Below, one piece after another: positions 404 to 55,930 of a stretch of 64,000 nucleotides of DNA; the first letter of the stretch is position 1, and each line of letters starts with the position of its first letter. The stretch is taken from the IMG/VR virus record IMGVR_UViG_3300045391_006539; one strand, given 5' to 3'. The notes under the pieces are model-generated. The model had not been told where the DNA came from and made no database searches. It was given only the letters and a program-made list of their open reading frames with translations. The DNA is from a virus. Taxonomy: Duplodnaviria > Caudoviricetes. Made by a program: the position numbers and the translations under genes.

Positions 404-476
404 CAACAGCACCTCCTTTTGCTTAGATTGACCTCTCCATTCCCCTTATGCCGTGAGGGGACTATCATTTGCGGTC

Positions 477-983
477 ATGAAGAAGCTTTCTGGGCTGGTT
501 CTCGACTACTACGATGACGTGGACGGAGTGGTCTTTCAGAAGCTCTCGTCAGCGGCGCCAGTCCTCTCGGGTTTGGAGAAGACGGCAGCGAGTCTCGACC
601 CCGAAGCGCTCTCGCGTCTGCCGGATGACGTATTCGCTCTGCTCTTGCAGGATGGGGACACGAGTCTGCGCAAGTACGCGATGGCAGATGCAGGCAACAC
701 GGCGCTCTCCATCGCCTACTTCCTCGAGCTCGGTCATCGACTGCCCGTCGAGGCCCAGAAAGTGGCGGCTGCCAATCTCATTCAGGGTTGCGAGTGGTAT
801 GGCTTCCAACCACCACCCGAGCTCGAGAAGATAGCTCTCGGTCTGGGTACGGCCATTCACGGAGCACTCGTTTTGCCGGGTGCAATGAGTGAAGCGAAGA
901 AGAACTTGCAGGCGGTCAAGGGCGCTCCCGGTATCATGACACCCGAGCAAATCAAGGCTCGCCGCATGCAGATGGGAGTGTGA
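477..983 (+). CDS. Head-associated protein with KxA motifs and LPDDVFAL..RKY motif (DUF6582-like)
   Basis: ORF 453..983, ATG at 477 preferred. Motifs LEKTA, QKVA, LEKIA; LPDDVFAL/RKYAMAD resembles the DUF6582-type repeat. Confidence 0.6.
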   Translation: MKKLSGLVLDYYDDVDGVVFQKLSSAAPVLSGLEKTAASLDPEALSRLPDDVFALLLQDGDTSLRKYAMADAGNTALSIAYFLELGHRLPVEAQKVAAANLIQGCEWYGFQPPPELEKIALGLGTAIHGALVLPGAMSEAKKNLQAVKGAPGIMTPEQIKARRMQMGV

Positions 984-984
984 C

Positions 985-1827
985 GTGAACGAACTCGAGA
1001 ACTACCTGATGGACAAGACGGCAGAGGTGGCGGGTACACACCTGATGCCTTCCAGTGCTCCAACGTACAGTGACCAGAACCGTAGCCCCACCAAGACCAT
1101 CAAGAAGGCCTCCCTCGGACAGCGGGTGGACGTTACCGGTGCGGAAGCATCCGGCGGAGGGGCTACCAAGCAGGCTCATCATTACGCTCTGCCTGGTCTC
1201 TCTCGCTATCCGCTGGATAGTCAGCTGCATGTGAAGCAGGCGAGTGCCTACTTCGAAGAGAACCACAAATCGATGGCGCCCGTGCATCGGCACGAGTACT
1301 GCGTCAACCTGGTCAAGCGCGCGAGTGCGCTCGGCATGAACGTCTCCGACCTCGCTCGTAAGTATGGCTCGGAAAGCTACGCGAGCGATGCGGAAATCGA
1401 GATTGCTCTGCTCGGTCGAGCGAGCGTCATCAAAGAAGCGATGCACCGCAGGGCGCTCAATGCTCTCGATGACCACCGCGCGCTGATGAAGCCGTCCGAC
1501 TTTGTCGTGGCGCTCGAGCAGTTTGACAAGGTTGCTGGTATCAGCCACCTCTATGACAGCCACGTGCTCGACCCCTACCTCTCGACCTTCGGGACCAAGA
1601 TGGCGAGTGACAGCGCCATCCAGGTCGACAACGAGTACATCCCGAGGGCAGACCTCGAAGCCTTTGCGAGGACCGATGCCAGCCGCCTCACCGACTCTTT
1701 CGGTGAGGACTTCGTCAAAGAGTTTCGCAAGGACCCGGTTGGTATCTTGAACAGCCTGCCGAAGGACCAGAAGAAGATGGTCATTCGTTTGGCCTCGAGT
1801 ACTCTGACGGACCCGACCTCCACCTGA
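985..1827 (+). CDS. Head-associated protein with DUF6582-like domain and KxA motifs
   Basis: YALPGLSRYPLDSQLHVKQASAYF...LVKRASALGMNV matches the DUF6582 pattern from memory; DKTA, TKQA, TKMA. Confidence 0.6.
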   Translation: MNELENYLMDKTAEVAGTHLMPSSAPTYSDQNRSPTKTIKKASLGQRVDVTGAEASGGGATKQAHHYALPGLSRYPLDSQLHVKQASAYFEENHKSMAPVHRHEYCVNLVKRASALGMNVSDLARKYGSESYASDAEIEIALLGRASVIKEAMHRRALNALDDHRALMKPSDFVVALEQFDKVAGISHLYDSHVLDPYLSTFGTKMASDSAIQVDNEYIPRADLEAFARTDASRLTDSFGEDFVKEFRKDPVGILNSLPKDQKKMVIRLASSTLTDPTST

Positions 1828-1828
1828 G

Positions 1829-2662
1829 ATGGAGCGCGAGGATGCAGAGAGCCGCTTCCGCCGCGCGTTGGCGGAGGTGCAGGCGTATCCGAGCTTGGTC
1901 AAGGCTGGGGCTGATTACATCCGCGACCGATTGCGCGAGGGCTCCGTTCCAGGCAACGACGATGATGATGACATCATCGAGACGACCGAGAACGACGATG
2001 GAAAGAAGGAGGCGGAGGCGTTACCGCCCCCGCCCCACATCAACCTCTTCCAACATCCAGATACACACCCAGCGATACTCGACATCCTCTTGCTGCGCAA
2101 GTACGGACCCGAGTGGATGCTCTGGGAGCCCGAGACGCTCGCGCTACGCATCCCGCTCGATTTTCACACCGGTGAAGTGAGCGACCTCAACATGCACAAG
2201 ATTCAGGCCATGAAGACCCTGCACGTGGTCGACAGTCCTTGGACGGCGTGGGAGGTCTTCGTGTGGTGTGCCATGCCACTCAACGGTCTGTTCCCAGACT
2301 TCGAGGTGATGCAGGTACCGACGGTGGCGCAGGTACTGGTGGCCATCGACGTCTTCAACATCGTCCGGCAAGACGTGACTTGGAGCGACGAGCTCGCGAC
2401 TTACCTCGGCACGGTCTGGCGGCACGAAGGTCTATTCGTTCCCGTCTCTCCTGCGGACTTCATCACCATCGATACGAGCGGGACGAAGCTCGACCTCGAT
2501 AAGATTCGGAGCATGTGGCCCGAGGTGCGGCAGAGTCGGAAGGCGCCCTCGGACGAGAATGCCGAGAGCGAGCAGCTGCGGCGCATGCTCGAAGCCGATA
2601 CCTACCTGCGCGAGTCGCAGGAACTGTTCGAGCGCCAGATGAAGGGAGTGCTGGGTGCCTGA
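1829..2662 (+). CDS. Hypothetical phage protein; N-terminus carries a copy of the capsid protein's YIRDxLRE motif
   Basis: 277-aa ORF coupled to its neighbours; GADYIRDRLREGS versus capsid GGAYIRDKLREVS. Confidence 0.7.
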   Translation: MEREDAESRFRRALAEVQAYPSLVKAGADYIRDRLREGSVPGNDDDDDIIETTENDDGKKEAEALPPPPHINLFQHPDTHPAILDILLLRKYGPEWMLWEPETLALRIPLDFHTGEVSDLNMHKIQAMKTLHVVDSPWTAWEVFVWCAMPLNGLFPDFEVMQVPTVAQVLVAIDVFNIVRQDVTWSDELATYLGTVWRHEGLFVPVSPADFITIDTSGTKLDLDKIRSMWPEVRQSRKAPSDENAESEQLRRMLEADTYLRESQELFERQMKGVLGA

Positions 2663-3662
2663 GTGGGTCAAGGAAGCGCTCGCGCCAGCAACCCTCGCGG
2701 CGATGAGCACGGCAGTCAAAGGCTTGGGGGCCGGGGCTGGGGTGGGCGGCCTGCTCGGCGCTGGTGCCGGTGGAGCCCTCGGGGCAGTCCAAGGGTACCG
2801 GCACCAGCGCCAGCACGGAGCCGACGTCGGTCACGCCCTCGCCGGGGGTCTGAGGGGAGCGCTTCCTGGCATCGGCGCCGGCGCCCTGGCAGGTGCAGGG
2901 GTCGGTGGTATCGCTGGGGCTTTGAAGCCAATGCAAGCGCTGGCCATGGGTCAGAAGCCCGGTCTCTTGCAAAGCGCGAGCCACTTCGGCCAGCGTCAAG
3001 TCCATGCCCTCACGGGCGTTGGCGGGGCCCAGTACGCGCGCTCGGTGGGCGGAGGCGCTCACGATGCCGTCGAGCGCTACGAGGCAGCCAGGAAGGCCGT
3101 GGACGCCGTTCACGAGCTGCACCCAGACCGGGTCCCGGCCATGCGCGAGTTCACCAAGGCCCGACAGTGGCGCGACGCCGCGCTCGAGAGCGAGCGTCAG
3201 GGTATTACCAGCTTGCCGGGCTATGCCAAGGCGCTCTGGAAGAACCCGGCCGATGCCGTGGCGGCTGGAGTCAAGGACCAGTGGCACAGCATGGGTACTG
3301 GGGGACGGGCGCTCATGTATGGCCTGCCCGCCCTCAGCGTGGCGGGCGAGCTCGCCCACTCCGAGGACGAGTCGGGTAAGGGCAAGGGCCGCTTCCAGCG
3401 CGCGGGTGAGATGCTCGGCACGGCGACGGGCGCCCTCGCACCTTTGCCCATCGTCGGTGACCTCGCCTTTGGTGGGGCGCTCTCGGGCAGCTTGGGACAG
3501 GTCGGCAAGCGTCTCGACACCCGCTCCGCGCTCCGCAATTTGCAGAAGCGTCGGGGTGAGCAGGTGTCGCTCCCGCCCGAGCCACGCGGCGAGACGACAC
3601 CGAGCGAGTACATCGCGAGCGACAGGGCCTCAGGGGTCATCCCAGAAAGCGTCACGGCATGA
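2655..3662 (+). CDS. Glycine-zipper-rich putative internal virion/ejection protein
   Basis: VKEA followed by GLGAGAGVGGLLGAGAGGALGA and further GxxxG arrays; overlaps the portal start. Confidence 0.55.
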   Translation: MPEWVKEALAPATLAAMSTAVKGLGAGAGVGGLLGAGAGGALGAVQGYRHQRQHGADVGHALAGGLRGALPGIGAGALAGAGVGGIAGALKPMQALAMGQKPGLLQSASHFGQRQVHALTGVGGAQYARSVGGGAHDAVERYEAARKAVDAVHELHPDRVPAMREFTKARQWRDAALESERQGITSLPGYAKALWKNPADAVAAGVKDQWHSMGTGGRALMYGLPALSVAGELAHSEDESGKGKGRFQRAGEMLGTATGALAPLPIVGDLAFGGALSGSLGQVGKRLDTRSALRNLQKRRGEQVSLPPEPRGETTPSEYIASDRASGVIPESVTA

Positions 3663-5686
3663 GTTTCGTCGGCAGTATCTCGGCAGGCACGGCTGGTAGT
3701 CCTGGCCGCTTCATGGCGCAGACCCGGGGGCGGGTACAGGGCTCCGTCGCGAACGGGGTGAACTACCCGAGTCCGTTCTTCGACGTCGCTCATACCTATC
3801 TACCCGTCACCATCAAGCAGCTCTTTCGCTGGTGTCGGTACTACTTCCTGACCAATCCGCTCATCAACGCGACGGTCTTCAAGCTGTCCGAGTATCCCAT
3901 CACGGACATCATCATCGAGCACCCCGAGCCGAAGGTGCGGCATCGTTGGGAAGAGTACTTTCAGGACCACCTGCGCTTCCGCGCATTCCAGGTCGAGTGC
4001 GGTCTCGACTACCACGCTTACGGCAACATGCTCGGCTCGCTCGGGTTCCCGTTCAAGAAGTACCTCAGCTGCCGAGTCTGTGGCTTCAAGGAGCGGGCGG
4101 ACAAGATTCGCCAGCACTGGACCTTCACGAATACGGCCTTTCGCTTGACGTGTCCCACGTGTGGGCAGACGGGTGATGCCTCGGCGCGCGATATTTACTA
4201 CCGCAACGCGAGCGGCATCAACCTCATCCGCTGGAACTGCGAGCACGTCGAAATCAACTACAACGACGCGACCGGCGAGACGACGCACTTCTACACCATC
4301 CCGCCGCAGGTGAAGAACGACATCACCATCGGCAAGAAGGACATCGTCGAGAGCATCCCGCAGGTCTTCATCGAGGCCATCCGCCAGCAGAAGGGCATCG
4401 TCTTTTCGAAGGACAACCTCTTCCACATGAAGCGGGCGACGCTCGCCCAGCAGGACCGTGGTTGGGGCATCCCACTCATCCTGCCGGTGTTGAAGGACGC
4501 CTTCTACCTGCAAATCATGAAGAAGGCGCAGGAGGCCATCCTGCTCGAGCACATCGTGCCACTGCGCGTGCTCTTCCCCCAGGCAGGTTCTGGTTCGAGC
4601 GACCCGTATACCAGTGTGAACCTCGTCGACTGGCGCGACCACGTCGCGACCGAGATTGCACGCTGGCGTTATGACAATAACTACATACCTATTCTCCCTC
4701 TACCTATTGGCAATCAGACCATTGGTGGTGATGGCAGAGCTCTACTCCTTACTCAGGAGATTCAAATCTGGTCTGAGCAGATGATGGTGGGCATGGGCGT
4801 GCCCAAAGAGTTCCTGCTCGGCGGCATGAGCTACGCTGGCACCAACGTCTCCATGCGCATGCTGGAGAACGCCTTCATCGGCTACATCCTGCGCCAGAAG
4901 CAGATGGCGAACTGGGTCATGCAGCAGGTCTCGGCATTCATGGGCTGGCCTCGAGCGCAGGTGCGCTTCAAGCCGTTCAAGATGGCCGATGACATCCAGC
5001 GCAAGGCCTTCCTGTTCCAGCTCAACCAGGCCAACAAGATTTCCGACACCACGCTCCTCGCCGACTGCGACCTCAATCAGGAGGATGAGGACGAAGTGAT
5101 GATTCGCGAGACGTCCAAGCGTTTGCAGGCAACCAAGCTGCAGCAAATCGCCATGGCGCAGATTCAGGGCGAGGCCTCGGTCGTCATGGCCAAGTTCCAG
5201 GCCAAGGCGCAGCAGGTTTCCCAGGCGGTCCTGATGACCCCGCCGGCGCCGGGTGAGCCCGGGGCAGAGCAGGAGATGATGAACCAGGCCATGCAGGGGC
5301 AGGCGGCCCCACCACAGCTGCCTGCGGGCACACAGAGCCCGCTCAATGCGGGGCAGCAGGCAGGCGTCCAGCCCGCTCCTGATAGCCTCGCCGAGGCCGA
5401 CCTCAATGCCCAGGCGCAACAGGGTGTGGACATCCACCAGCTCGCCACCATGCTGGCCGAGCAGTATCTGTCGCTCGGTGCCGACGAGCAGCAAATGGCG
5501 CTCCAGAATCTCCAGGCTCAGAGTCCCGAGCTCGCGGAGCTGGTCTTGCAGGAAGTCCACCGCATGCAGGCACAGGGCATGGGTCCACAGCAGATGCCTG
5601 GGGCGCTCGGCGCGAGCGTCTCCCAGGTGGACACTAGACCTTTGCCCGAGCAGCGGGGACCTCGTCGCATGGCTGCATCCGTATGA
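3659..5686 (+). CDS. Portal protein (putative) with zinc-ribbon insertion and Gln-rich C-terminus
   Basis: 675 aa. Portal-like N-terminus (YYFLTNPLINATVFKLSEYP), GWGIPLILPVL, MGVPKEFLLGG; CRVC/CPTC insertion; head-gene context. Confidence 0.7.
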   Translation: MSFVGSISAGTAGSPGRFMAQTRGRVQGSVANGVNYPSPFFDVAHTYLPVTIKQLFRWCRYYFLTNPLINATVFKLSEYPITDIIIEHPEPKVRHRWEEYFQDHLRFRAFQVECGLDYHAYGNMLGSLGFPFKKYLSCRVCGFKERADKIRQHWTFTNTAFRLTCPTCGQTGDASARDIYYRNASGINLIRWNCEHVEINYNDATGETTHFYTIPPQVKNDITIGKKDIVESIPQVFIEAIRQQKGIVFSKDNLFHMKRATLAQQDRGWGIPLILPVLKDAFYLQIMKKAQEAILLEHIVPLRVLFPQAGSGSSDPYTSVNLVDWRDHVATEIARWRYDNNYIPILPLPIGNQTIGGDGRALLLTQEIQIWSEQMMVGMGVPKEFLLGGMSYAGTNVSMRMLENAFIGYILRQKQMANWVMQQVSAFMGWPRAQVRFKPFKMADDIQRKAFLFQLNQANKISDTTLLADCDLNQEDEDEVMIRETSKRLQATKLQQIAMAQIQGEASVVMAKFQAKAQQVSQAVLMTPPAPGEPGAEQEMMNQAMQGQAAPPQLPAGTQSPLNAGQQAGVQPAPDSLAEADLNAQAQQGVDIHQLATMLAEQYLSLGADEQQMALQNLQAQSPELAELVLQEVHRMQAQGMGPQQMPGALGASVSQVDTRPLPEQRGPRRMAASV

Positions 5687-5700
5687 GGGGCTAAGAGAAG

Positions 5701-5889
5701 ACCGCCCAAAGACGGACTACCCGACACGCACCGGTTTGGCATTGGTGGGCCGCGAAGCTTACGTTAGCCGCCCCGTGGTTGTGTGCGTGTCGAGTAGCCC
5801 GTCTTCGGACGGTGGATGAGCCCCTCGAGAGGAGCGTGCTGCCCGCGGAGGGGGTTCGCGAACAGCAGCCCCACTCGAAGGGCTCATCC
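5701..5889 (-). ncRNA. Putative structured RNA: two abutting long hairpins in the convergent intergenic region
   Basis: 5701-5731 pairs with 5783-5813 (31 bp), and 5814-5889 folds into a ~32-bp rod. The + strand A/C mismatches are G-U pairs on the - strand. Confidence 0.55.
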
Positions 5890-5898
5890 CGGTTTCTG

Positions 5899-6342
5899 TC
5901 AGTTGCTGTTGAGGTAGTTCGCAGCCTTGACGAGGCTGTGTTGACTATGCACGGCGCGTGCCATTGCAGTGACCTCGGGTTCGGTCCGCAGTGCCTGGAC
6001 TGTCTTCTCGAGTATTTCGGACACGTCGTTGTAGCGGGTGTCCTTGGTGACCTCCGCGATGGCCAAGGCCCAGACGATGCCCCACTCTGAGGTCTTCTCG
6101 AAGGCGTGCTCGGTGCCGAGGTATCCGAGCAGACCGTGCTTGGCCTGCTCCTTCATTGACCAGAAGGCCATGTCATTGAACGTACCGATGATTTTCTGCA
6201 CGCGCTGCATGTTCCCATCATCATCTGTCACCCGAGTGAGCATCATGCTCTCGGCGGCTCCGGTGATGAGTAGGGTGGCACCCGTGGTAACCGAGGAGGC
6301 AATACCGGCGGCGCGGTCGAGAACCTTGAGGAACTTCTTCAT
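5899..6342 (-). CDS. Hypothetical protein
   Basis: 147-aa ATG ORF continuing the - strand operon. Confidence 0.65.
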   Translation of the reverse strand: MKKFLKVLDRAAGIASSVTTGATLLITGAAESMMLTRVTDDDGNMQRVQKIIGTFNDMAFWSMKEQAKHGLLGYLGTEHAFEKTSEWGIVWALAIAEVTKDTRYNDVSEILEKTVQALRTEPEVTAMARAVHSQHSLVKAANYLNSN

Positions 6343-6395
6343 AGCGGTCTATTCACGTGCGGAGATGTGATGCACGTGCCTTTCTTCCATAGTTG

Positions 6396-7706
6396 TTATT
6401 CCTCAAAATCGTCAGAAATTGCGGCACTCTGCAGATTGCGTAGAACTTCATACCGCTTCTGCACGTTGCGGTCGTTGGACGTGAGAATCTGAATGCCCCA
6501 GTCGCAGGGTCGGCGTGTCCAAGGTCCTGGGGCGAGTAGCCACACGAACTCGGTGCCGCGTGGCTTGTGAGTAGGCGCGACGCCGTCTCCATCCGTCGAG
6601 TAGAAGATGATGTCGGGTTTGGGTCTGGAAGACATCACCCGTTCGATGGCTGGGATGAAGTTCGTACCACTCCGACCCACGACGGGCAAGGTGAAGAGCT
6701 CGCGCACACCGATGCGGATGGGTTCTCTCTTTACACTGGCGTCACAGGCGAGGTACCAGACCTCCGAGAATCCGAGCTGCATCATGGCGTGAGCGAACTC
6801 GTAGCGGTTCTCCCGGAGCTGTGGGCTACCCATCGAACCACTCGAATCTTCTATGAAGTAGACGACGGGTTCGTAGGTGATGAGGCCGGGTCGGAGAAGG
6901 CCGATGGCGTAGCTGCGCCGGGAGGGTCGGCGGAGCGAGTAGTCGCTTTGCCCCGAGCGCACACGACCGCAGGCATCCCCCAGCACCATGGGCACGACTT
7001 GTTGCCAGGGGACGACCGCTTCTTCGGTACCATCGAACCGGAGGAGTTCCTCCATGAAGGCCGGCATATTGCCCCGCCCGAAAGCGCCGCTCTTGGCAGC
7101 CTCTCTGAGGGCTTGCTTGCCGGCTTGTTTGAAGTACTGGACCTCCGATTCGCTGCGACCCTGTTCCTTCGTCTTCTGTTCGGAGGGTGATGGCTTTCCA
7201 CCCGAGCAGGTGCCGCAGCGTCCAGAGCCCACTGACAGAGCCTTGGGTCGCTTGTCGGGAGGCAGATTCTTCAGGAGCTCGTAGTACTTCTCTCCAGTGA
7301 GTCCCTTGGGGAAGCCGTAGTTCTTGCTAAAGAGTCCCTCTGGCGGCAGCTTGACGCCGAGGGAGTCGAGCATGTCGTTGATGGGGAAGTCGAAGGCGCA
7401 GGCCAAGAGCTCCCACTCGCTTTGAGGAAAGCTGACGATGCGCGGCAGATGGTCGTTCAGAATGTGCAACGCCTCGTGTATGAGTAGACCACTCGCCACT
7501 TCTACATCCCACTGTGAATACCAGTGGTAATCGATGCCGAGGAGCATCTTGTCCGTGACGAATAGCGTTTGGATGGCCTGGACGTTCTCGGGGACGAGGC
7601 CGAGTACGGTCACGTAGAAGTAGGGGAACTTGGATTTGATGTGGAGACGGGCCTGCTGCAAGCGGATGATGCCCGCACCGATACTCTGTAGCTCAGTCTT
7701 GGACAT
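6396..7706 (-). CDS. Putative metallopeptidase + VWA-like domain protein (DUF2201-type)
   Basis: HEALH (HExxH), DFPIND, SLRRPSRR, MIDAS-like EDSSGSM, GRSGTNF, STDGDG; paired with an AAA gene. Confidence 0.8.
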   Translation of the reverse strand: MSKTELQSIGAGIIRLQQARLHIKSKFPYFYVTVLGLVPENVQAIQTLFVTDKMLLGIDYHWYSQWDVEVASGLLIHEALHILNDHLPRIVSFPQSEWELLACAFDFPINDMLDSLGVKLPPEGLFSKNYGFPKGLTGEKYYELLKNLPPDKRPKALSVGSGRCGTCSGGKPSPSEQKTKEQGRSESEVQYFKQAGKQALREAAKSGAFGRGNMPAFMEELLRFDGTEEAVVPWQQVVPMVLGDACGRVRSGQSDYSLRRPSRRSYAIGLLRPGLITYEPVVYFIEDSSGSMGSPQLRENRYEFAHAMMQLGFSEVWYLACDASVKREPIRIGVRELFTLPVVGRSGTNFIPAIERVMSSRPKPDIIFYSTDGDGVAPTHKPRGTEFVWLLAPGPWTRRPCDWGIQILTSNDRNVQKRYEVLRNLQSAAISDDFEE

Positions 7707-8961
7707 AGTCAGTGATGTTATTGTCCGCCATCCAGCGGTATACGGGGTCTGCGAAGATGCGAATCGCTGGGCTCACGCTCCGACCGAGGTTCTTGCTGAG
7801 CAGGGTTCGTGCACCAGAGACGATGACGTCGCCCATGTCGGCTTGGATAAAGTTGCTGAAAATGCTCCAGGCGCGAGCGGCCATGTCGATGGCCACCTGT
7901 CGGTCGGGGATGCTGGCAACGTACTCCGTCACGCTCGTGAGGACGGCGTAGCCGACATCCATGCGGTGATTGTTGGGCTGGAAACCTTTCTCGAGGACCT
8001 CCTCGGGTCTCGGCAGGTCGGCATTGCGCAGCCAGGTGAGCATGTCGAATGCAGCTCCCTCACCCACGCAGCCCTCTATCATGAGCTGCCCGATGGCCTC
8101 GGAATGACCGAGCGCATCTGCGGTGGCCTTGAGGCGCCCGGCGAGTCTCCAAGTACGGTGTGAGGGCCAGTTGTACCCCGATTGCGGGTGGTCCGTCGAT
8201 GGTTCCATGTGTAGTGTCATGCCCTGCCGATACTCGTGGTAGCCCGTCAGCATGGCTTTGGCGTGAGCATAGGTCGAGCTCCAGCGGGAGCGAACGATGT
8301 CTTCTCCCTTGGCGGCGTCGAATTTGGGTGTCGCCCGCTCGCTCGCCATGAAGGCAATCCAATCTCGGTGGGGTGGCGGCTTCACCTGGAGGTGGCAGTA
8401 GCGGTTGGCCGTTGCCGGTGATAGGTGGAAACCACTGGTCGACCACTTGGGTGGGTTGGCTGCAGCCAGGATGCGAATGCCGGGAGCAAGGCGGGTATCC
8501 CCAACGACTCGGTCTTGGATGAAGCCGAGCATGGCTCCTTCCGTTGCTCGAGTCGCGTTGTTGGCCTCGTCGAGGAAGATGACGCCTCGACCCTGTGGGT
8601 TGAGCCAGCGCACGGCGGCGAGCATGCACTCGATGGTGGGCCCATTCAAGCCAGGCATGAGCACGCCTGCAAAATCTTCGGGTTGGCGCTGGCCTGGGTA
8701 GATGGGTGCGTAGGGCAGCATGCATTCGATGCACGCCTGTTTGACCTTGTCGCTCTTGGCCGTAGAGGGTAGACCCCAGTAGAAGACGGGAGCGCCCCAA
8801 ATGCAGTCGGGTTCGAAGGGGTCTCCCATGGGAGTCATGATGGCGACGTGCGCCGTGACGTGCATGACGTTGGTGGCATCCGGCACGTTCGCATCTTCGA
8901 TGCCGACGTGCATGGTGCTGCCTTTGGAATGGTCGAATACGTGCTTTTTCTGGTCAGGCAT
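7693..8961 (-). CDS. MoxR-like AAA+ ATPase
   Basis: Walker A variant GLPSTAKS, Walker B IFLDEAN, ILAAANPP, LSPATANRY, PSHRTW. Confidence 0.8.
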   Translation of the reverse strand: MPDQKKHVFDHSKGSTMHVGIEDANVPDATNVMHVTAHVAIMTPMGDPFEPDCIWGAPVFYWGLPSTAKSDKVKQACIECMLPYAPIYPGQRQPEDFAGVLMPGLNGPTIECMLAAVRWLNPQGRGVIFLDEANNATRATEGAMLGFIQDRVVGDTRLAPGIRILAAANPPKWSTSGFHLSPATANRYCHLQVKPPPHRDWIAFMASERATPKFDAAKGEDIVRSRWSSTYAHAKAMLTGYHEYRQGMTLHMEPSTDHPQSGYNWPSHRTWRLAGRLKATADALGHSEAIGQLMIEGCVGEGAAFDMLTWLRNADLPRPEEVLEKGFQPNNHRMDVGYAVLTSVTEYVASIPDRQVAIDMAARAWSIFSNFIQADMGDVIVSGARTLLSKNLGRSVSPAIRIFADPVYRWMADNNITDYVQD

Positions 8962-8976
8962 AGACTTTGGTTGTAT

Positions 8977-8999
8977 GGAGCCAGCACGCTGCTGGCTCC
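8977..8999 (-). promoter_or_regulatory. Perfect 10-bp hairpin in the leader of the AAA gene
   Basis: GGAGCCAGCA-cgc-TGCTGGCTCC, 3 nt downstream of the GAGATAAC motif on the - strand. Confidence 0.5.
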
Positions 9000-9035
9000 G
9001 TGGTTATCTCTGCTTCTCTGAAGAATTGCTAGACC

Positions 9036-9629
9036 TCACCCGGACTCTTTCCGAGTGCAGCTTCCGGGGCAGCCGCTTCTCCAACATCTAGCGTAAGTTC
9101 CGTCCTTACATTCCTCTCCATGACAGACGCCGTCTGCCCAGACTTCTTGTATGTCCGTGTTCAAGTCCATGATGCACGAGATGCAGAAGTACGTCGGGTT
9201 GGGGTCACAGATTTCGAACCTGTCACCTGGTTCACTGACATCTGGATTCCTACTGGAACGATGAATCTCTCCGAATGGGGCGACGCACATCGTCTCGCCC
9301 GGTAGGATGCCGCTCTTGCAATATTTGCAGTACACGATGGCGCCATGCACGTTCACTGGTACTCGGTTCTCCGAGTAGACATAAAAGCGCTCTTCGATTT
9401 CATTCCAATTCTTCACATGGATGAAGGCTGGTTCGTATAGGTAATCGTCCTCATTTTCCGTCTTGATGTCGAAGAACGTCAGCCGACCATTGACGATGAA
9501 CGGTCTGACCATGAACATGCAAACGCAGCCATCCATGTATGGGATGGGTTCTCCATCACACGCGCAGAGGACGTTACTTTCCATGACCCAATCGCTGTTC
9601 TCCCAGTCGTCTTCTCCATAACTTTTCAT
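9036..9629 (-). CDS. Cys-rich hypothetical protein
   Basis: 197 aa with several CxxC/CxC motifs; lower GC than the flanks. Confidence 0.7.
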   Translation of the reverse strand: MKSYGEDDWENSDWVMESNVLCACDGEPIPYMDGCVCMFMVRPFIVNGRLTFFDIKTENEDDYLYEPAFIHVKNWNEIEERFYVYSENRVPVNVHGAIVYCKYCKSGILPGETMCVAPFGEIHRSSRNPDVSEPGDRFEICDPNPTYFCISCIMDLNTDIQEVWADGVCHGEECKDGTYARCWRSGCPGSCTRKESG

Positions 9630-10211
9630 CTACAACCTCTCCCAGATGAGCGGTGTTCGCTCGACCCGAGTCCAGCGCCGGTGCACTGTCTCGAGTCGTG
9701 GGTCTGGGGTCAGGTAGGAATCTGGGTCCCAGTCCCAGAGCAATGTGTCTAGTTGTTCGACGTCTTGTCGGAAATCGATGTGCAACCGTCGAGTGAGCTC
9801 GAGTCCTTGCGGCAAGACTCCTGGGTAGTCTCGTCGTGCGATGCACTCGCGTTCGAACAAGTCGTCACGCAGGTCTTCATCATCGCAGCACAGTCCATAC
9901 CAATCAGGGTCGGTGGGTCCGACGTAATCCTGGCCGAGCCATTTGCAGTATTGACCGGGCTTGGCCATGCCGAGCAAGACCTCGAGGTCTCGCTGATTGA
10001 CGAACGTGATGAAGCCTTTCGAGTCCGTGAGCTTCGCCCGGACGCCGCCGAGAAGGCGTCCGGGAACGGGTGCGAGCACCCATTGCACGTACCAAGGTCT
10101 GTCTGGTTCTAGTGGGTCGCGGATGGCGACACCGGGCAGTCCGATGGGGTCTTCGAGAAACCTCGTTCCCTCGATGAGCTTGAGACTATGCGGCGTTGGG
10201 TTGACGAGCAT
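9630..10211 (-). CDS. Hypothetical protein
   Basis: 193-aa ORF abutting the next gene; SD GGAG upstream. Confidence 0.7.
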   Translation of the reverse strand: MLVNPTPHSLKLIEGTRFLEDPIGLPGVAIRDPLEPDRPWYVQWVLAPVPGRLLGGVRAKLTDSKGFITFVNQRDLEVLLGMAKPGQYCKWLGQDYVGPTDPDWYGLCCDDEDLRDDLFERECIARRDYPGVLPQGLELTRRLHIDFRQDVEQLDTLLWDWDPDSYLTPDPRLETVHRRWTRVERTPLIWERL

Positions 10212-10315
10212 TGGCGTTTCTCCAACTCTCTCTGGTCAATACCTCTCGGCACCAGAAGAGAAGCCCACAACATATGCCGTAGAAAAAGCCGAGACAGAGC
10301 ACTCCAAACAATGTC

Positions 10316-10426
10316 TTAATCCTCCTCGTCCTCCTCTGTTATGCCGTCTATTCCCAGCATTTCATCTATGTCTGCTTCGAATGCCTGACCTGAATTGTCG
10401 TATCCCTCTTCATCGGTATCTTTCAT
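10316..10426 (-). CDS. 36-aa highly acidic peptide
   Basis: Below the ORF-track cutoff. MKDTDEEGYDNSGQAFEADIDEMLGIDGITEEDEED with SD GGAGG (10435-10431) and a GGAATAAC motif upstream. Confidence 0.5.
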   Translation of the reverse strand: MKDTDEEGYDNSGQAFEADIDEMLGIDGITEEDEED

Positions 10427-10512
10427 TAGTCCTCCGATGTAGTTATTCCCGAATCAGGCCTCTTCCTTGCTGATGCAGAAGGCCGTGGGTTACCCTGGTG
10501 CGCGAGTCATCC

Positions 10513-16971: not shown

Positions 16972-16987
16972 TTCAGAGTTGAGTAGA

Positions 16988-16996
16988 TGCTAGACT
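16988..16996 (+). promoter_or_regulatory. Extended -10 promoter (TGC-TAGACT), probably leaderless transcript
   Basis: 7 nt upstream of GTG 17004 with no SD; same geometry at 477, 18295 and 19311. Confidence 0.45.
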
Positions 16997-17003
16997 CGAG
17001 TTC

Positions 17004-18263
17004 GTGCCCCTACCCGGCGTAGCTACGTACTCTCAGGCTGGACCTGACCAGAGACACCCCTTTCGAAACGCGTGGACGCAACCGGAAGGGGGCTCTGGCG
17101 CGTTCGTCCAGGAGTGCCAAGTCACCGATATCAATCTCAAGCTCTGGACGGTCGACGTCGTCACCAAGTTCGACCAGAAGCAATACCTGAACATTCAGAT
17201 TGCTTCTCCGTACATGCACTTCAACCAAGGTGAGGGCTTCTATGCGATGCCGGACATCGGCGCGAAGTGCCAGGTCTGTATCCCCAGTGATGGCCCACCA
17301 CCCTTCGTACTCGGCTTCATCATGCCGCAGGAGACGATAGATGGCGCGAGTGCGGACGCTCCCCAAGGAACAGATGGGCAGAAGGGAGGCGTCACCCAGA
17401 CCGCCACTACCGCCTCCTTCGCTGGTGGCCGTAAGCGGGCCAAGCCTGGAGACATGGGCGTCGCTTCCAGAGACGGGAGCTTTGTACGTCTCCACCGCGG
17501 TGGGGTCTTGCAGATTGGTGCTTCAGAGCTCGCTCAGCGCATTTACATCTCTCTACAAAACGTCATCACGGATATCAGCCAGAACTACCGTCACCAGAAC
17601 ACTGGCGGCAGCGTCAACTGGTTCATCTCCCCCGGAGAGTCTGTCACTAACCCTCCTACCACAGCACGGTATACCTATCGAGTTCTGGCCAATGAGGAGA
17701 AGGCTACCGTCCGTGTTGCCGTCGGACGAGTGAGCGACGTCTTGAAGGAACCGCTCGAGGAAGTTCGGAGCGACCTGACGCAGCTCGGTATCGATGGCAA
17801 GAGCATCGTCGCAGAGGTCATCATCGCGCCCGAGACCATTGCGGCAGAGGATGGGGCTCTCGGCAAGGACACTCCAGGTGCCAGCGTGCTTCGCTACTTC
17901 TTCGACAAGGCGGGCAATGCCCTCTTGCGGATGGAGGGCAGCGTCGTCGCGAGGGTCGGCAAGCGTCTGCGCCTGCGTGTCGATGACAACGTCGAGGTCT
18001 TCGGCAAGAAGGACATGACCATGACGTTCGATGGGGTCGGCCGCCTCGCAGCGCAGGGCGGACTCGACCTCTCGGGAGCCGTCGTTCGGGTCAACGGTGG
18101 CAGCAAGGCTGTGGCTACCGTGGGTTCGACCGTGATGATGACCGTGGTCGCGCCCATCCCCATCACGGTCGTCGTCGCCGGCGTGCCGAGCCCGGGAACC
18201 ATTCTCACCGGCGCGGTCTTCAGTGGGGTCATTACTAGCGGCAACCCGACCTTCCTCGCTTGA
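17004..18263 (+). CDS. Baseplate central spike protein (gpV/Gp5 OB-fold-like) with PAAR-like C-terminus
   Basis: TVDV...GEGFYAMPDIGAKCQV OB-fold pattern, beta-strand repeats, terminal GVITSGNPTFLA. Confidence 0.55.
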   Translation: MPLPGVATYSQAGPDQRHPFRNAWTQPEGGSGAFVQECQVTDINLKLWTVDVVTKFDQKQYLNIQIASPYMHFNQGEGFYAMPDIGAKCQVCIPSDGPPPFVLGFIMPQETIDGASADAPQGTDGQKGGVTQTATTASFAGGRKRAKPGDMGVASRDGSFVRLHRGGVLQIGASELAQRIYISLQNVITDISQNYRHQNTGGSVNWFISPGESVTNPPTTARYTYRVLANEEKATVRVAVGRVSDVLKEPLEEVRSDLTQLGIDGKSIVAEVIIAPETIAAEDGALGKDTPGASVLRYFFDKAGNALLRMEGSVVARVGKRLRLRVDDNVEVFGKKDMTMTFDGVGRLAAQGGLDLSGAVVRVNGGSKAVATVGSTVMMTVVAPIPITVVVAGVPSPGTILTGAVFSGVITSGNPTFLA

Positions 18264-18294
18264 AGATGAGTCCTCGGGCTAATCTGGTCTAACG

Positions 18295-18939
18295 ATGGCC
18301 TCTGTAGATGAAATTGCGGGCGGAACGCTCGGTGAGCTCAACACGGGCCTCGACCAGGCCACGGTGCTGCTGCCGGCACTGACGGCGCAGATAGACGCGG
18401 CCATCGGGCTCGGCCTCGGCCCCCTCAAGTTTGACCTCGGGGTCCAGCTCAACGCCGCGCTGGCCGCGACGGCCACCCTCACGCTCCAGGTGGGCAACCC
18501 CCTGGCGGCCCTGCAGGCGGCGCTGGCGGCCGTCGTGCAGCTCCAGGCTGCCATCACGGCGAGTCTTGCCCTGCCACCAGTGCAGCTCAGTCTGGGCGCC
18601 GAGCTCAGCGCCATGGCGGCCCTCGCCGGTACGGTCTCGGCTCGGCTCGGGGCCATCGAGGGCATCATCCAGGCCGCGCTCGCGGCGAAGCTGCCAGCCG
18701 TTCAGTTCCTCGATGGTCTCGACCTGAACGTGGGCCCCGCCATCCTGCTCGGTTTCGACGGCATCAGCGACGGTACGCAGATGTCTCAGATTGGCAACCT
18801 CATTCAGAACAAGCTGCAGGCGCCCGTCACCTTCGGCGGCGATACCATCCAGCCCACGGACAACGTGAGTGGGGTGCTGCTCCTGACGACCGCAGACCCT
18901 GTCTTCACAGTGATGGCGCAGATATTTGCGGGGCTATGA
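18295..18939 (+). CDS. Ala/Leu-rich hydrophobic hypothetical (likely baseplate-associated)
   Basis: 214-aa ORF directly after the spike gene. Confidence 0.6.
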   Translation: MASVDEIAGGTLGELNTGLDQATVLLPALTAQIDAAIGLGLGPLKFDLGVQLNAALAATATLTLQVGNPLAALQAALAAVVQLQAAITASLALPPVQLSLGAELSAMAALAGTVSARLGAIEGIIQAALAAKLPAVQFLDGLDLNVGPAILLGFDGISDGTQMSQIGNLIQNKLQAPVTFGGDTIQPTDNVSGVLLLTTADPVFTVMAQIFAGL

Positions 18940-18962
18940 GAAGCACTCGATGAGTGCTCCTC
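18938..18962. terminator. Hairpin between convergent genes
   Basis: AGCACTC-gat-GAGTGCT core stem; no clear U-tract. Confidence 0.35.
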
Positions 18963-18976
18963 TGGGCACTCTGCCG

Positions 18977-19246
18977 TCAGCCGAGTGCACGTAGGTCATG
19001 AACCTCTTCGATGTTGGTGACCACCCATCCTGATTCGGTATCGGTGGTGTCTAGTCCCCCCAATTTCTCTAGGGTGGGAACTGGGTCGAGCACCTTTCGG
19101 TAGACCTCGGGTTCGTTACCGAACCGCACCTCGAAAAGCTCACTTCGGTCGCCCTTTTCATTCACCGTGAAAGGCCAACTCGGATGCGCAAAGAGAAAGA
19201 TGTTCCGGTGTGGATACCCAGTTCTGATGGTGAATTGATAAATCAT
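18977..19246 (-). CDS. Small hypothetical protein
   Basis: 89 aa filling the gap between + strand genes; SD GGAGG and GGAATAAG motif upstream. Confidence 0.6.
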   Translation of the reverse strand: MIYQFTIRTGYPHRNIFLFAHPSWPFTVNEKGDRSELFEVRFGNEPEVYRKVLDPVPTLEKLGGLDTTDTESGWVVTNIEEVHDLRALG

Positions 19247-19294
19247 CGCGTTCTAGTCCCTCCAGTCCGCTTATTCCGGTACTGGCAAACTCTT

Positions 19295-19303
19295 TGCTAT
19301 CCT
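19295..19303 (+). promoter_or_regulatory. Extended -10 promoter (TGC-TATCCT), probably leaderless transcript
   Basis: 7 nt upstream of ATG 19311; no SD. Confidence 0.45.
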
Positions 19304-19310
19304 CTCGGCC

Positions 19311-21662
19311 ATGCAGCCACTCTTCCTCGAGCCGCGAGTCGAGTTCCAAAAGACTGCGGCGATGACGCAGCTTCCTGAAGACCCAAACGCGTGGCCTCAC
19401 GAGATTCTGCAGGAGCTCTACAAGCAAGCACCCTACATCGCAGACTTCTCCCCGCACGTGGTGATGGAGAAGGTCGATGGGGAACAGGGGTATGGACTCG
19501 GGTTCGTAGAGGTGGGAAACCAGACCGAGATTCAGGCGGCTGCAACGCCCGAAGCCACGGCAGCATCTGGAGTGCGCAAGGTGCGCGTCCCCGTGGTCAT
19601 CAAGGACGGGATGCTCTTCCCCTTCGACTTGCTCGTGAGCGACGACTCGAAGGTCTTGCCGCTCACCGAGACGCGGCTACGTGCCGCCATCTTCCGTCCC
19701 CAGGCCTTCGACGTGACGAGTCGTACTCCTGGCGACCAGAGCATGATTGGCCAGCTCTATCCTCCATATCGCCAGAGCATGGGCTTTGGCAGCGGCACCA
19801 TGACGAGCGTTGGCATGGGCGGCATGGACAAGGGTGGCAGCGCGCTCGAGACCTACCTCGGCGAGAAGACGGCAGGCTTCCAGGAAGAAGCGGCGCAGTT
19901 CATGTCAGCGGACTACCTGCACGCGCCGGAGGGCACCAAGCAGGCACGCTACGGCAAGAAGGTCGCCTCGGGTGACGCGCGCGTCGGGATGATGGACGAG
20001 TTGCTTTCGAAGAGCGCCTCGGCGCTCGGCGCCGTCAACGCAGCGCTCGCGGGTCGAGGTGCAGCCAGTCAGGCCGTGAAGAATACGGCAGCGGCCAAGA
20101 GCCACGCCACGGCGGCGATGGTGCGCGCCAAGAACATCGCGAGCAAGAGCGGGCTCTTGAAGAAGACTGGGTCACTGCTCGCCGATATCGCGCCGACGGT
20201 TTACGAGAGCGACCTGCTCGCGTTCAAGCGCGCCATGGTCGACTCCGACCTGCAGCCCTTGCTCTACAAGAACGCAGCGGCCATGACCCCGGCACTCGAG
20301 GTGCTGCTCACGGTGCCAGAGCGGCCCAAGTTCGCCTCCGCTCTGCCCAGCCTGGTCTCGCCCACGGTGGTCCAGCTCAAGCGCACGGACGAGGGTTACA
20401 GGGTCAAGGCGGCGAGTCATCTCCTATGGGCGCCGTTCACGGAGGACATCGACCGCGGCGCCGCCGTCGCGCGCTTCGGCGAGAAGGTCGTCCTTGCAGC
20501 CGATTTGTCGGGTGCCGTCACTATGTCTGGGGAAGAACCCGCCGCCGAAGACATGGAAGCGGCGCAGCCCACCGCGGCGCCCAAATCTATAACGGCGCCG
20601 GGCGTCTATCGCGTGACCACGCCCGAGGGCGAGGACGTCGTCGGGCACGTCATTCCCAACCTGGTCGACATCGACGGCACGGAGTTGCCGCTCGCGCTCT
20701 TCACGAATGGTGAGCAGTCCATCGTGCAGGGTGACGTGGTGGGCGTTCCCGTAGACGAGGCCGTGGAACTACCCGCGGGAGCGAGCGAGCCTCACGGTCG
20801 TGGTGTATTTATCACCGAGGGTCCCGAAGGCACCAAAGCCACCATCCCGCTCGACATCCAGGGCTCGGTGGACATGGGCGATGGTGAGCCCTCGCTCTAT
20901 CGCGCCGAGAGTTTTACGGGTGAGCAGGTCATGGTCTCGCTCCAGCCCAACATCGTGGCCGTGACGGGCACCGAGGACGGCAAGATGCTCATCCCCTCGA
21001 GCTGGTCGTGGCTGCCACTCGACCATACGGATGCCGTAGCGCTCGAGTCCCAGGAAGATGGGCTCGGTGGCAAGACGGCCTCGCTCCGCGCTGCAGACTC
21101 CACCATCGAGCTCGTGAGCGGGCATGGCGGGACGTACTCGCTGCGGGGTCTACCCGTCGAGAAGCTCGCACATGACGAGCGCGAGATGCTCGGTCTCGAC
21201 GACACGATGTTTCTGCTCGCAGGTCTCGGTGTGCCGCAGAAGCGGGGCATCGAGAAGCTCGCCAAGGCGATGACTGGGCTCGAACCGGTGCAGGTGCGTG
21301 TGTATCACACACTCAAACTCGCGAGCGATGCGGCAGCGGAGGCCGTAGCCGCCGCGCGGGAGGTACTCGCACACCTACCCAACCTGCGCCAGCCCCATCT
21401 CTTCAAGGAAGCGGCAGTGCTCGGCGACCCCCAAGCCGTCGACACGGTGCTCGCTCTCGGGTTCCTAAACCCGGAGAATCTCACTACGTTCGTGGGCTAT
21501 CTGCCCGAGCTCGAGGCGAGCCAAGCCAAGCTCTGTGACATCTTGCTCGCGAGCCGTCTCGGCAGCCTCATCGAGACGCCCGAAGGCGCCGTCGAGCGCT
21601 CCGTGCGCAGCGTCGAGGCGGTACTCGAGGGGCTCAAAGCTCTGGCCTTCCAGCAGAACTGA
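19311..21662 (+). CDS. Large head-associated protein with many KxA motifs
   Basis: 783 aa; QKTA, EKTA, TKQA, KKVA, SKSA, YKNA, PKFA, GKTA, EKLA, LKLA, FKEA. Confidence 0.7.
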   Translation: MQPLFLEPRVEFQKTAAMTQLPEDPNAWPHEILQELYKQAPYIADFSPHVVMEKVDGEQGYGLGFVEVGNQTEIQAAATPEATAASGVRKVRVPVVIKDGMLFPFDLLVSDDSKVLPLTETRLRAAIFRPQAFDVTSRTPGDQSMIGQLYPPYRQSMGFGSGTMTSVGMGGMDKGGSALETYLGEKTAGFQEEAAQFMSADYLHAPEGTKQARYGKKVASGDARVGMMDELLSKSASALGAVNAALAGRGAASQAVKNTAAAKSHATAAMVRAKNIASKSGLLKKTGSLLADIAPTVYESDLLAFKRAMVDSDLQPLLYKNAAAMTPALEVLLTVPERPKFASALPSLVSPTVVQLKRTDEGYRVKAASHLLWAPFTEDIDRGAAVARFGEKVVLAADLSGAVTMSGEEPAAEDMEAAQPTAAPKSITAPGVYRVTTPEGEDVVGHVIPNLVDIDGTELPLALFTNGEQSIVQGDVVGVPVDEAVELPAGASEPHGRGVFITEGPEGTKATIPLDIQGSVDMGDGEPSLYRAESFTGEQVMVSLQPNIVAVTGTEDGKMLIPSSWSWLPLDHTDAVALESQEDGLGGKTASLRAADSTIELVSGHGGTYSLRGLPVEKLAHDEREMLGLDDTMFLLAGLGVPQKRGIEKLAKAMTGLEPVQVRVYHTLKLASDAAAEAVAAAREVLAHLPNLRQPHLFKEAAVLGDPQAVDTVLALGFLNPENLTTFVGYLPELEASQAKLCDILLASRLGSLIETPEGAVERSVRSVEAVLEGLKALAFQQN

Positions 21663-21677
21663 TTGCATTTCCCGAAG

Positions 21678-21786
21678 AGCTGGGCCAGGTTATGCCTGGG
21701 CCAGCTACCCCGGGGTCGTCTTCTCCGTTCAGCGTTTTTCCGTGGGTTCGTCGTGCTTCGCCCTGTTCGGGGTAGCTGGGCCCGGC
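21678..21786. promoter_or_regulatory. Intergenic element with two mutually exclusive hairpins
   Basis: 21678-21689 pairs with 21695-21706; alternatively 21701-21712 pairs perfectly with 21768-21779. Confidence 0.45.
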
Positions 21787-21796
21787 TTCGACCACC

Positions 21797-23147: not shown

Positions 23148-23388
23148 GACCGAAGCTCAGAAACCGCTTCTCGAAGACGAGGTCTTTCAGCATCCAGCCC
23201 GCCTCCTTCGTGTGCCAGCGCATGAAGTGACGCACCATGGGTCTCATCTTGACGGGGATGACCTCGCGCGCCTGGAAGTAGATTAGGTATCCGTCCTCCA
23301 GTGTCTGGATGACCGGGTTGTAGAATATCTCGTACGCTCTCTGTAGAGAGGCGAGCAGGTCTTCCACATAGGTATCTACTTTCATCAT
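23101..23388 (-). CDS. Small hypothetical protein
   Basis: 95 aa of globular-looking sequence filling the gap; its start overlaps the terminase start at CATG. Confidence 0.5.
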   Translation of the reverse strand: MMKVDTYVEDLLASLQRAYEIFYNPVIQTLEDGYLIYFQAREVIPVKMRPMVRHFMRWHTKEAGWMLKDLVFEKRFLSFGLMPREQRRACRRTHP

Positions 23389-26266: not shown

Positions 26267-26268
26267 GA

Positions 26269-27000
26269 CTACTCGTTGCGGGGCGCCTCCCAGACGAGGT
26301 TGTTCATCGATAGCGCGATGACATCTTCGTGGGGGCACCCCTTGACCTCGGGAAACATCTCGGCGGCGAGCTCTTTGCCGTAGAGCGTGCGCACGTGAAA
26401 GTAGGCGGTACGTCGGGCTGTGCGTAGTCCCGTGTTCAAGAGCTGGTAGGTCGTCTCGAGCTCGGGGTTGTAGCGGGTGACGAGGACATCCTGCCCGTCG
26501 CAGAGCTTGCGACCGAGCCTGAGGAAGGCCCGCCAGGGTTCCTTCTGGTCGGTGTAGAAGGTGATGGCCTCGAAGTGACTCTCGGTCAGACCGTATAGGG
26601 TCTTGGCCCACTCGAGCAGGACGGTAGGATTGCGACTGGCTGGCTCGCGCAGTGCGTCCTCTGCTCGGAGCAGAAGACTCACGACCGAGTCCCGGTCTGT
26701 GGCGATGTGTGGCGTGTTCAAACCCAGCACGAAACGAATCTGGTCGAGTTCACGGCGCAGGGCGCGTGCCTCCATGGACGCACGCTTGGCTTCGACGAAG
26801 GCGGCCTCCGGATTACTACCCTTCTCGCGAATCTCCTTCAGCGCTGCGATGTCCGTCATTCGATAGAGTCGATTGGCGACAGTCGAGGGGCTCTCTGGAG
26901 CGGGTTTCAAGATGCCCCGGCGCAGCATCTTTTGTAGTTGTGAGCTAGTGACACCGAGGATGGACGCAGCTTGTTCGCCATTCACGAGCTCGTATTTCAT
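26269..27000 (-). CDS. MerR/excisionase-like HTH DNA-binding protein
   Basis: EQAASILGVTSSQLQKMLRRGIL...RLYRMTDI, then a coiled coil. Confidence 0.7.
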   Translation of the reverse strand: MKYELVNGEQAASILGVTSSQLQKMLRRGILKPAPESPSTVANRLYRMTDIAALKEIREKGSNPEAAFVEAKRASMEARALRRELDQIRFVLGLNTPHIATDRDSVVSLLLRAEDALREPASRNPTVLLEWAKTLYGLTESHFEAITFYTDQKEPWRAFLRLGRKLCDGQDVLVTRYNPELETTYQLLNTGLRTARRTAYFHVRTLYGKELAAEMFPEVKGCPHEDVIALSMNNLVWEAPRNE

Positions 27001-27090
27001 CGCTCGAGTGAGACACATCGAGGCCCTCGCGTCTAGGCCCCTTCCTTCCCTTGACTACATGCCACGGTATATTCTTACCCCGGAGGACCG

Positions 27091-48355: not shown

Positions 48356-48378
48356 TAGAATCGGACTAGGAGACGAGA

Positions 48379-55878: not shown

Positions 55879-55930
55879 CTTCCCTTCTTGCTAGGATTGT
55901 ATATACGATGTGTCGACAATTGAGAGGCCC

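Follow-up and report, generated by a model that had tools for sequence, protein, structure and literature searches.

A predicted bipartite promoter with sigma-28-like geometry ahead of non-structural genes in a clade of large phages encoding their own RNA polymerase

The appropriation of the host core RNA polymerase (RNAP) by a phage-encoded sigma factor is a classical phage strategy. Among the phage sigmas that redirect the host enzyme are gp55 of T4, which works with the host core on a late promoter, TATAAATA, that has no -35 box, and gp28 and gp34 of SPO1. Other phages encode multisubunit RNAPs of their own, such as phiKZ and AR9, whose enzymes consist of four or five split subunits, have no sigma and, in a virion-packaged form, transcribe the early genes (PMC7598289, PMC9209446). 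The RNAP of AR9 reads a template-strand motif containing uracil (PMC9209446). Bacterial sigma-28 promoters follow the consensus TAAAGTTT-n11-GCCGATAA (PMC2859248), and in the fliC promoter of P. aeruginosa the two boxes are TCTAAAG, from -36 to -30, and GCCGATAA, from -15 to -8; in the fliC open complex A(-11) is flipped out and an upstream G/C pair is read as an extended -10 element (PMC12784957). A two-block element, GCAA-N16-GGNATAA(G/C)-N5-(T/C)-GG(A/C)G, is described here from a stretch of 64,000 nucleotides (nt) of viral DNA (Duplodnaviria; Caudoviricetes; IMG/VR record IMGVR_UViG_3300045391_006539), hereafter called the window. The element is probably the cognate promoter of a phage sigma factor, most likely acting together with the phage's own fused RNAP, and would serve non-structural genes.

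The window has 62% G+C and holds the majority of its genes on the plus strand. A megablast comparison with known phages gave no match, so that the deposited phages include no close relative. With the window's RNAP as query, uncultured relatives were found in IMG/VR, including G1 (177 kb) and G2 (171 kb), whose RNAPs are about 54% identical to it, as well as distant relatives, including Salmonella phage Arash (OQ632216.1; 53% G+C). A preliminary description of the window had flagged eight 8-mers of the form GNN(A/G)TAA(C/G) and proposed them as a promoter for early genes. A pattern search finds all eight on the minus strand where they had been placed, and the six regarded as main sites each lie 15-55 nt before the start codon of a minus-strand gene. 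The scarcity of TAA that had been noted is real as well, with 70 copies on one strand and 87 on the other where base composition predicts about 430, which is five to six times below expectation on both strands of the whole window. The 8-mer itself is not enriched against background (32 matches to GNNRTAAS, with 38.8 expected), and the narrower GGMATAAS with one mismatch, tried as a motif, was rejected after showing no enrichment over shuffled sequence (66 vs 80.9).

A second block was seen on aligning the sites. The pattern GGMATAAS-N6-GGA has five exact copies in the window, all on the minus strand, and with one mismatch it has seven, against 1.98 expected; none of 100 shuffles reached that number. 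Whole-contig scans for the element gave 21 matches in G2 and 12 in G1, against two in each for the reversed pattern, and ATAAGA, CATAAG, GGCATA and GGATAA ranked near the top for enrichment in an unbiased 6-mer count over the upstream regions of the same two genomes. Another k-mer lead, ACAGTCC/GGAGGACTGT, turned out not to be a motif.

Picking sites solely on GGNATAAS-N5-Y-GR yielded 37, of which four are in the window, 14 in G1 and 19 in G2. In columns that had not been used for picking, these sites share GCAA at -20 to -17 from the first G, with C at 27, A at 34 and A at 30 of the 37, while the 16 spacer columns between the boxes hold almost no information. The full element is thus the one given above, with a spacer of 16 nt, or 17 nt at one site in the window, and its position -7 is G at 34 sites, C at three and never T. 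A scan for both boxes found five matches in the window, 24 in G1 and 28 in G2, compared with 0, 2 and 2 for the reversed controls, and nothing motif-like on the plus strand or in the structural half (28-64 kb) of the window. A scoring matrix trained on 33 G1 and G2 sites alone, and then applied to the window, picked out exactly four outliers, at 452 (score 28.3), 6402 (27.5), 19277 (26.5) and 10449 (22.1). The next best site in the window, inside a coding region, scored 15.3, and the best in 30 random windows 18.0 (mean of maxima 12.5). Iteration of the matrix with a low threshold was dropped, as it began to collect purine-rich repeats from coding sequence. All four members have an exact GCAA box, and their predicted start sites lie 9-46 nt from the start codon:

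434-472, minus strand: putative promoter P452; GCAA at 472-469, 16-nt spacer, GGCATAAG at 452-445, GGGAAT, predicted +1 at G 438 (GGAGAGG); 35-nt leader to the ATG at 403.
6384-6422, minus strand: putative promoter P6402; GCAA at 6422-6419, 16-nt spacer, GGAATAAC at 6402-6395, AACTAT, predicted +1 at G 6388; 46-nt leader to the ATG at 6342; its TAA doubles as the stop codon of the gene at 6396-7706.
10431-10470, minus strand: putative promoter P10449; GCAA at 10470-10467, 17-nt spacer, GGAATAAC at 10449-10442, TACATC, predicted +1 at G 10435; 9-nt leader to the ATG at 10426; its GGAGG doubles as the ribosome-binding site; divergent from the RNAP gene.
19259-19297, minus strand: putative promoter P19277; GCAA at 19297-19294, 16-nt spacer, GGAATAAG at 19277-19270, CGGACT, predicted +1 at G 19263; 17-nt leader to the ATG at 19246.

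Two of these positions are kept in relatives. P452 has a counterpart ahead of the homologous gene in G1 (60276) and G2 (80469), and a divergent promoter beside the RNAP gene, like P10449, is also present in G1 (49743), G2 (70483) and a further uncultured genome, G006 (13599); in G1 and G2 the gap that it occupies separates the RNAP gene from a small, divergently oriented gene for an acidic peptide.

The other four flagged 8-mers do not belong to the element:

9003-9010, minus strand: GAGATAAC, non-member; -10 score -3.2, CAATT box nearer than it should be by one base, no Y-GG.
27074-27081, minus strand: GGGGTAAG, non-member ahead of the MerR-like gene at 26269-27018; -10 score -7.5, no -35 box.
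10338-10345, minus strand: GGCATAAC, chance match inside the open reading frame (ORF) of a 36-residue acidic peptide; -10 score 11.2, no -35 box, purine at -1.
21689-21696, minus strand: GGCATAAC, chance match; -10 score -4.2, no -35 box.

At the place homologous to 9010 in G1 and G2 the motif was not found either. The claim that the six main sites share one promoter motif therefore holds for 452, 6402, 10449 and 19277 and fails for 9010 and 27081, and the two additional occurrences, at 10345 and 21696, are likewise chance resemblances. The consensus of the preliminary description was too loose: half of its listed sites are non-members, and the -35 box, the spacer and the dinucleotide at the start site were overlooked. 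Its idea of a phage-specific promoter is well supported by the two boxes, the gene-aligned orientation, the position kept in relatives and the co-occurrence with RNAP and sigma described below. Its remark that no sigma-70 pair accompanies the sites is correct for the E. coli consensus, since a scan of positions 1-20000 for TTGACA-N17-TATAAT found none (3.9 expected), but the motif is itself a -10 half, to which the exact GCAA is the -35 half at the four members.

The sites behave as promoters would be expected to. The orientation of GGNATAAG matches that of the local gene in 14 of 15 cases in G1 and 22 of 23 in G2 (36/38 in total), and more than half of the sites in these two genomes are intergenic, though intergenic DNA makes up 11-16% of the sequence. 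A ribosome-binding site, a start codon and an ORF follow within about 110 nt at 36 of the 37 sites scoring at least 20. Counted from the conserved G, the leaders fall into two groups, of 10-16 nt (17/36) and of 27-54 nt. In the short-leader group, which accounts for about half of the copies in the clade, GGAGG is the ribosome-binding site; the long leaders have a separate ribosome-binding site downstream and nonetheless keep Y-GG. The conserved pyrimidine-G lies 6-8 nt past the -10 element both in the clade and in Arash, where the equivalent bases are T-G-TAA and the ribosome-binding site is always separate. Because the dinucleotide persists in the long leaders and, as TGTAA, in Arash, it belongs to the DNA element rather than to the translation signals. 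A pyrimidine at -1 and a purine at +1 are the usual preference of multisubunit RNAPs.

A strict form of the pattern matched 43 stretches in IMG/VR. Contigs of 150-200 kb account for at least 13 of these, and several such contigs have multiple matches; since single matches may be chance, reliance was placed on the multi-match contigs and on controls with zero matches. Five genomes picked by the DNA pattern alone, G006-G010, have 18, 7, 4, 1 and 2 copies of GGNATAAG-N5-YGGAG, respectively, and every control is zero. All five encode the fused RNAP. Together with G1 and G2 they form a set of seven uncultured motif-bearing genomes (G1, G2, G006, G007, G008, G009 and G010; 160-195 kb), whose RNAP orthologues are 52-56% identical. 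In Arash, 27 sites of the form GGTATAA-N6-YG (GGTATAAG-N5-TG) contrast with one in the control, and 26 are on the non-structural strand; in the region from 18 to 50 kb they stand 28-62 nt before annotated starts. A CAAT-like box precedes them with about the spacing found in the clade.

The candidate reader enzyme is encoded in the window itself, next to P10449:

10498-16971, plus strand: fused beta-beta' multisubunit RNAP, a single chain of 2157 residues.

This protein matches Pfam Rpb2_6 (E = 7e-61) as well as Rpb1 domains 1, 2 and 5. An orthologue in G009 (IMGVR_UViG_3300031552_000001, 81466-89424) has a frame of 2674 residues that matches in four separated pieces, which suggests inserted elements such as inteins. 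A sigma factor was not found when G1 and G2 were searched with Pfam Sigma70_r2, whereas the sigma of Arash, gp10, as query recovered one of 262 residues in G1 (E = 3.6e-22) and another in G005, which is more distantly related, with 38% identity between its RNAP and that of the window. The RNAP is present in all eight motif genomes (the seven uncultured ones and Arash) and the sigma homologue in six of the eight, including every genome rated at least 95% complete; four of G006-G010 are rated 100%, and all four have it, with E values of 1e-22 to 1e-72. The best curated family for the G1 sigma is FliA/WhiG (TIGR02479, E = 1.4e-10), Pfam detects region 3 in it, and FliA/WhiG models also top the list for gp10. 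Region 4 is matched in the G005 sigma (E = 1.8e-4), with which the C-terminus of the G1 sigma aligns, and thus a domain able to read a -35 box is present. AlphaFold, given the G1 sigma as a single sequence, produced a model too uncertain for use (predicted local distance difference test score, 63). The sigma gene stands directly behind the motif in G008, and in Arash a copy of the motif precedes the pair gp9-gp10, which suggests that the sigma may feed its own synthesis. In Arash virions, RNAP beta is the protein with the most spectra, and beta', sigma and a helicase are also abundant; the study reporting this does not mention promoters (PMC10585845). No description of the motif words or of a sigma-bearing phage RNAP turned up in literature searches.

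If ATAA is counted as -11 to -8, GCAA would form a -35 box at -34 to -31 and NATAA(G/C) the -10 core, the GG at -14/-13 would act like an extended -10 element, and transcription would begin at the conserved G after the pyrimidine (Y-G as -1/+1), placing GGAG at +1 to +4. The proposed reader is a phage-encoded, weakly FliA/WhiG-like sigma, whose regions 2 and 3 would read GGNATAAS and whose region 4 would read GCAA, with the phage's own fused beta-beta' RNAP as the most likely core enzyme. In the window this machinery would drive four minus-strand non-structural units. That the element is a promoter is well supported; that the phage RNAP reads it, and does so early, we infer from the virion proteome of Arash (PMC10585845) and from gene content. 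The genes served would fit an early or middle non-structural regulon. Those in the window encode small proteins, the acidic 36-residue peptide, an ATPase and its DUF2201/VWA partner; in relatives the products are collagen-like proteins and one resembling thymidylate synthase, and in Arash the genes belong to nucleotide metabolism.

With its two blocks, its 16-17 nt of free-sequence spacer and its position upstream of and aligned with genes, the element falls into the bipartite class read by the sigma-70 family. Among bacterial promoters, those of sigma-28 are the most similar, since GCAA-N15-nGGnATAA runs in the same register as TAAA-N15-GCCGATAA (PMC2859248, PMC12784957): both have xxAA at -34 to -31, ATAA at -11 to -8, a G/C-rich extended -10 element and a start, predicted in the phage element, about 8 nt past ATAA, and FliA/WhiG is the best curated family of the phage sigma, albeit far under its cut-off. 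The shared bases are ATAA and the final AA of the -35 box, with GCAA in place of TAAA and nGGn in place of GCCG; the phage element further differs in the fixed G/C at -7, the conserved YGGAG start, the phage genes that it serves and a core that may be the phage's own. It is not a primary sigma-70 promoter, as it has neither T at -7 nor a TTGACA-like -35 box. T4 gp55 and the SPO1 factors resemble the present system in combining a sigma-family protein with a phage-specific promoter class and an A/T-rich -10 element, but, unlike at T4 late promoters, a -35 box is present here and the phage brings its own core enzyme. Like phiKZ and AR9, the clade encodes a multisubunit RNAP that, in Arash, is packaged in the virion. 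Its fused chain of 2157 residues, the sigma homologue in relatives and the bipartite -35/-10 motif set it apart from the short single-block promoters of the phiKZ/AR9 type (PMC7598289, PMC9209446). The continuous promoter of about 23 bp used by T7-type single-subunit enzymes also differs, the RNAP here being a two-barrel multisubunit enzyme and the motif having an unconserved spacer. Arash shares the homologous RNAP and sigma and uses GGTATAAG-N5-TG with a CAAT-like box on its non-structural strand, although two genes encode its RNAP, the base at -12, variable elsewhere, is always T, and TGTAA replaces YGGAG in the start region. Overall, the regulon appears to be clade-wide and undescribed, and the element a sigma-family bipartite promoter of sigma-28-like geometry.

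The phage sigma might instead redirect the host core RNAP, as T4 gp55 and SPO1 gp28 do, and leave the phage beta-beta' enzyme to another promoter class. This arrangement would follow the classical strategy; regions 2 and 3 of the phage sigma match bacterial sigmas in the ordinary way, and the plus-strand structural genes, which are without the motif, seem to use other signals. We consider it unlikely, given that Arash virions contain sigma, beta and beta' in abundance (PMC10585845), that sigma and the phage RNAP occur together in every complete genome checked, and that a copy of the promoter adjoins the RNAP gene in four genomes. Less probable still is that the sites are read by a host holoenzyme without any phage factor, whether one with sigma-70 acting through an extended -10 element or one with sigma-28/FliA. 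The ATAA with A at -11 and G at -14 does fit an extended -10 element, and the spacing equals that of sigma-28 promoters (PMC2859248). Yet all 37 sites have G or C at -7, where sigma-70 needs T, no TTGACA-like box is present, and nGGn replaces the GCCG core of sigma-28; a consensus kept among phages whose hosts differ greatly, from uncultured ones of 62% G+C to a Salmonella phage, fits a factor carried by the phage. That the element is no promoter at all, but the site of a DNA-binding regulator or an mRNA element for translation or processing tied to the ribosome-binding site, is very improbable. GGAGG lies 5-11 nt before the start codon at 17 of 36 sites in the relatives and at two of the four in the window, where it serves as ribosome-binding site. 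However, a conserved box 16 nt upstream, across a spacer of no fixed sequence, is a property of the DNA, the GG persists at sites whose ribosome-binding site stands apart, 25-50 nt further on, the equivalent bases in Arash are TGTAA, and the element combines strict orientation with an absence of dyad symmetry.

Several points count against a phage sigma and phage RNAP as the readers. The FliA/WhiG matches are far under the family's cut-off (41 bits for the G1 sigma and 37 for gp10, against 189.6), and among solved structures SigA, WhiG and FliA match similarly weakly, SigA as well as the others. Sites in Arash often read TGGTATAAG, which resembles an extended -10 element of the host. No sigma gene was found in the motif-rich G2 (by tblastn and a three-sequence hidden Markov model) or in G007, genomes that are incomplete (rated 91% and 88%, respectively), and the sigma is known from relatives, the window genome's own lying outside the window. 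The +1 positions of all members are predictions from sequence, and sequence alone separates neither a phage core from a host core nor early from middle timing.

A broader reading, which we hold tentatively and at somewhat less than even odds, is that the clade, including Arash, delivers with the virion a kit of bacterial-type RNAP and sigma-28-like sigma, which starts infection from GCAA-N16-GGNATAAG without the host polymerase and remakes its own sigma from the same promoter class. From packaging of the complete holoenzyme it would follow that these are the first promoters used after injection. Such a kit would amount to a phage RNAP holoenzyme that depends on a sigma, in contrast to the RNAPs of the phiKZ and AR9 types, which have none. 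As Arash grows on Salmonella Typhimurium and its virion proteome is published, this holoenzyme is directly testable. The consensus itself defines a promoter precisely enough to be tested in a little-studied clade, phages of 160-200 kb with RNAP and sigma, allows transcription units to be annotated across it, and splits the non-structural regulon from the motif-less structural genes; GGNATAAG/YGGAG and GGTATAAG/TGTAA form a natural pair for the study of sigma/promoter co-evolution.

The four window promoters precede the following genes and features:

2-403, minus strand: gene behind P452; at least 134 residues, continuing beyond the start of the window.
5899-6342, minus strand: gene behind P6402; 147 residues.
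5687-5898, minus strand: two very long hairpins followed by UCUUCUCUUAGCC, in a 212-nt gap between convergent genes.
6396-10426, minus strand: operon behind P10449; gene order kept in G1 and G2.
10316-10426, minus strand: operon gene for the 36-residue acidic peptide.
9630-10211, minus strand: operon gene, 193 residues.
9036-9629, minus strand: operon gene, 197 residues.
7693-8961, minus strand: operon gene for an ATPase.
6396-7706, minus strand: operon gene for a DUF2201 metallopeptidase/VWA-like protein.
18977-19246, minus strand: gene behind P19277; 89 residues.

The gene behind P452 has no Pfam or PHROG match but has homologues in G1 and G2, where no homologue of the gene behind P6402 was found. 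At 441-461, a 9-bp inverted repeat (TCCCCT...AGGGGA) has the -10 box of P452 in its loop, an arrangement that may be regulatory or due to chance. The first product of the P10449 operon, MKDTDEEGYDNSG...EEDEED, is very acidic, and G1 and G2 have a small acidic ORF at the equivalent place. Further along the operon, between the genes at 9036-9629 and 7693-8961, a perfect 10-bp hairpin, GGAGCCAGCA...TGCTGGCTCC (8974-9002), directly follows the non-member GAGATAAC; no T-run accompanies it.

The hairpins at 5687-5898 have stems of about 31 bp each and a minimum free energy of -134.6 kcal/mol (z = -11.9). They are the probable terminator of the P6402 unit, and probably a strong, perhaps two-way, one, or alternatively a structured RNA. 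Their tail, UCUUCUCUUAGCC, resembles TTT(C/T)TAGCC, one of the words most strongly enriched ahead of genes in the two relatives G1 and G2 (for example, G1 65265-65279 and 140510-140530; G2 85431-85445). There, a T-run with TAGCC directly precedes several promoter copies, often just before the -35 box, and the word has the look of a terminator tail used in the clade. TTYTAGCC is not enriched over the entire window, and one variant closes the hairpins at 5687-5898. Because the P6402 unit ends in these hairpins and UCUUCUCUUAGCC, the transcription units look insulated from one another. In the gaps at 16972-17003, 48350-48378 and 55879-55909, the words TAGACT, TAGAAT or TAGGAT stand near the start codon of plus-strand structural genes, and they may represent a second, -10-only class of promoters for the structural genes.

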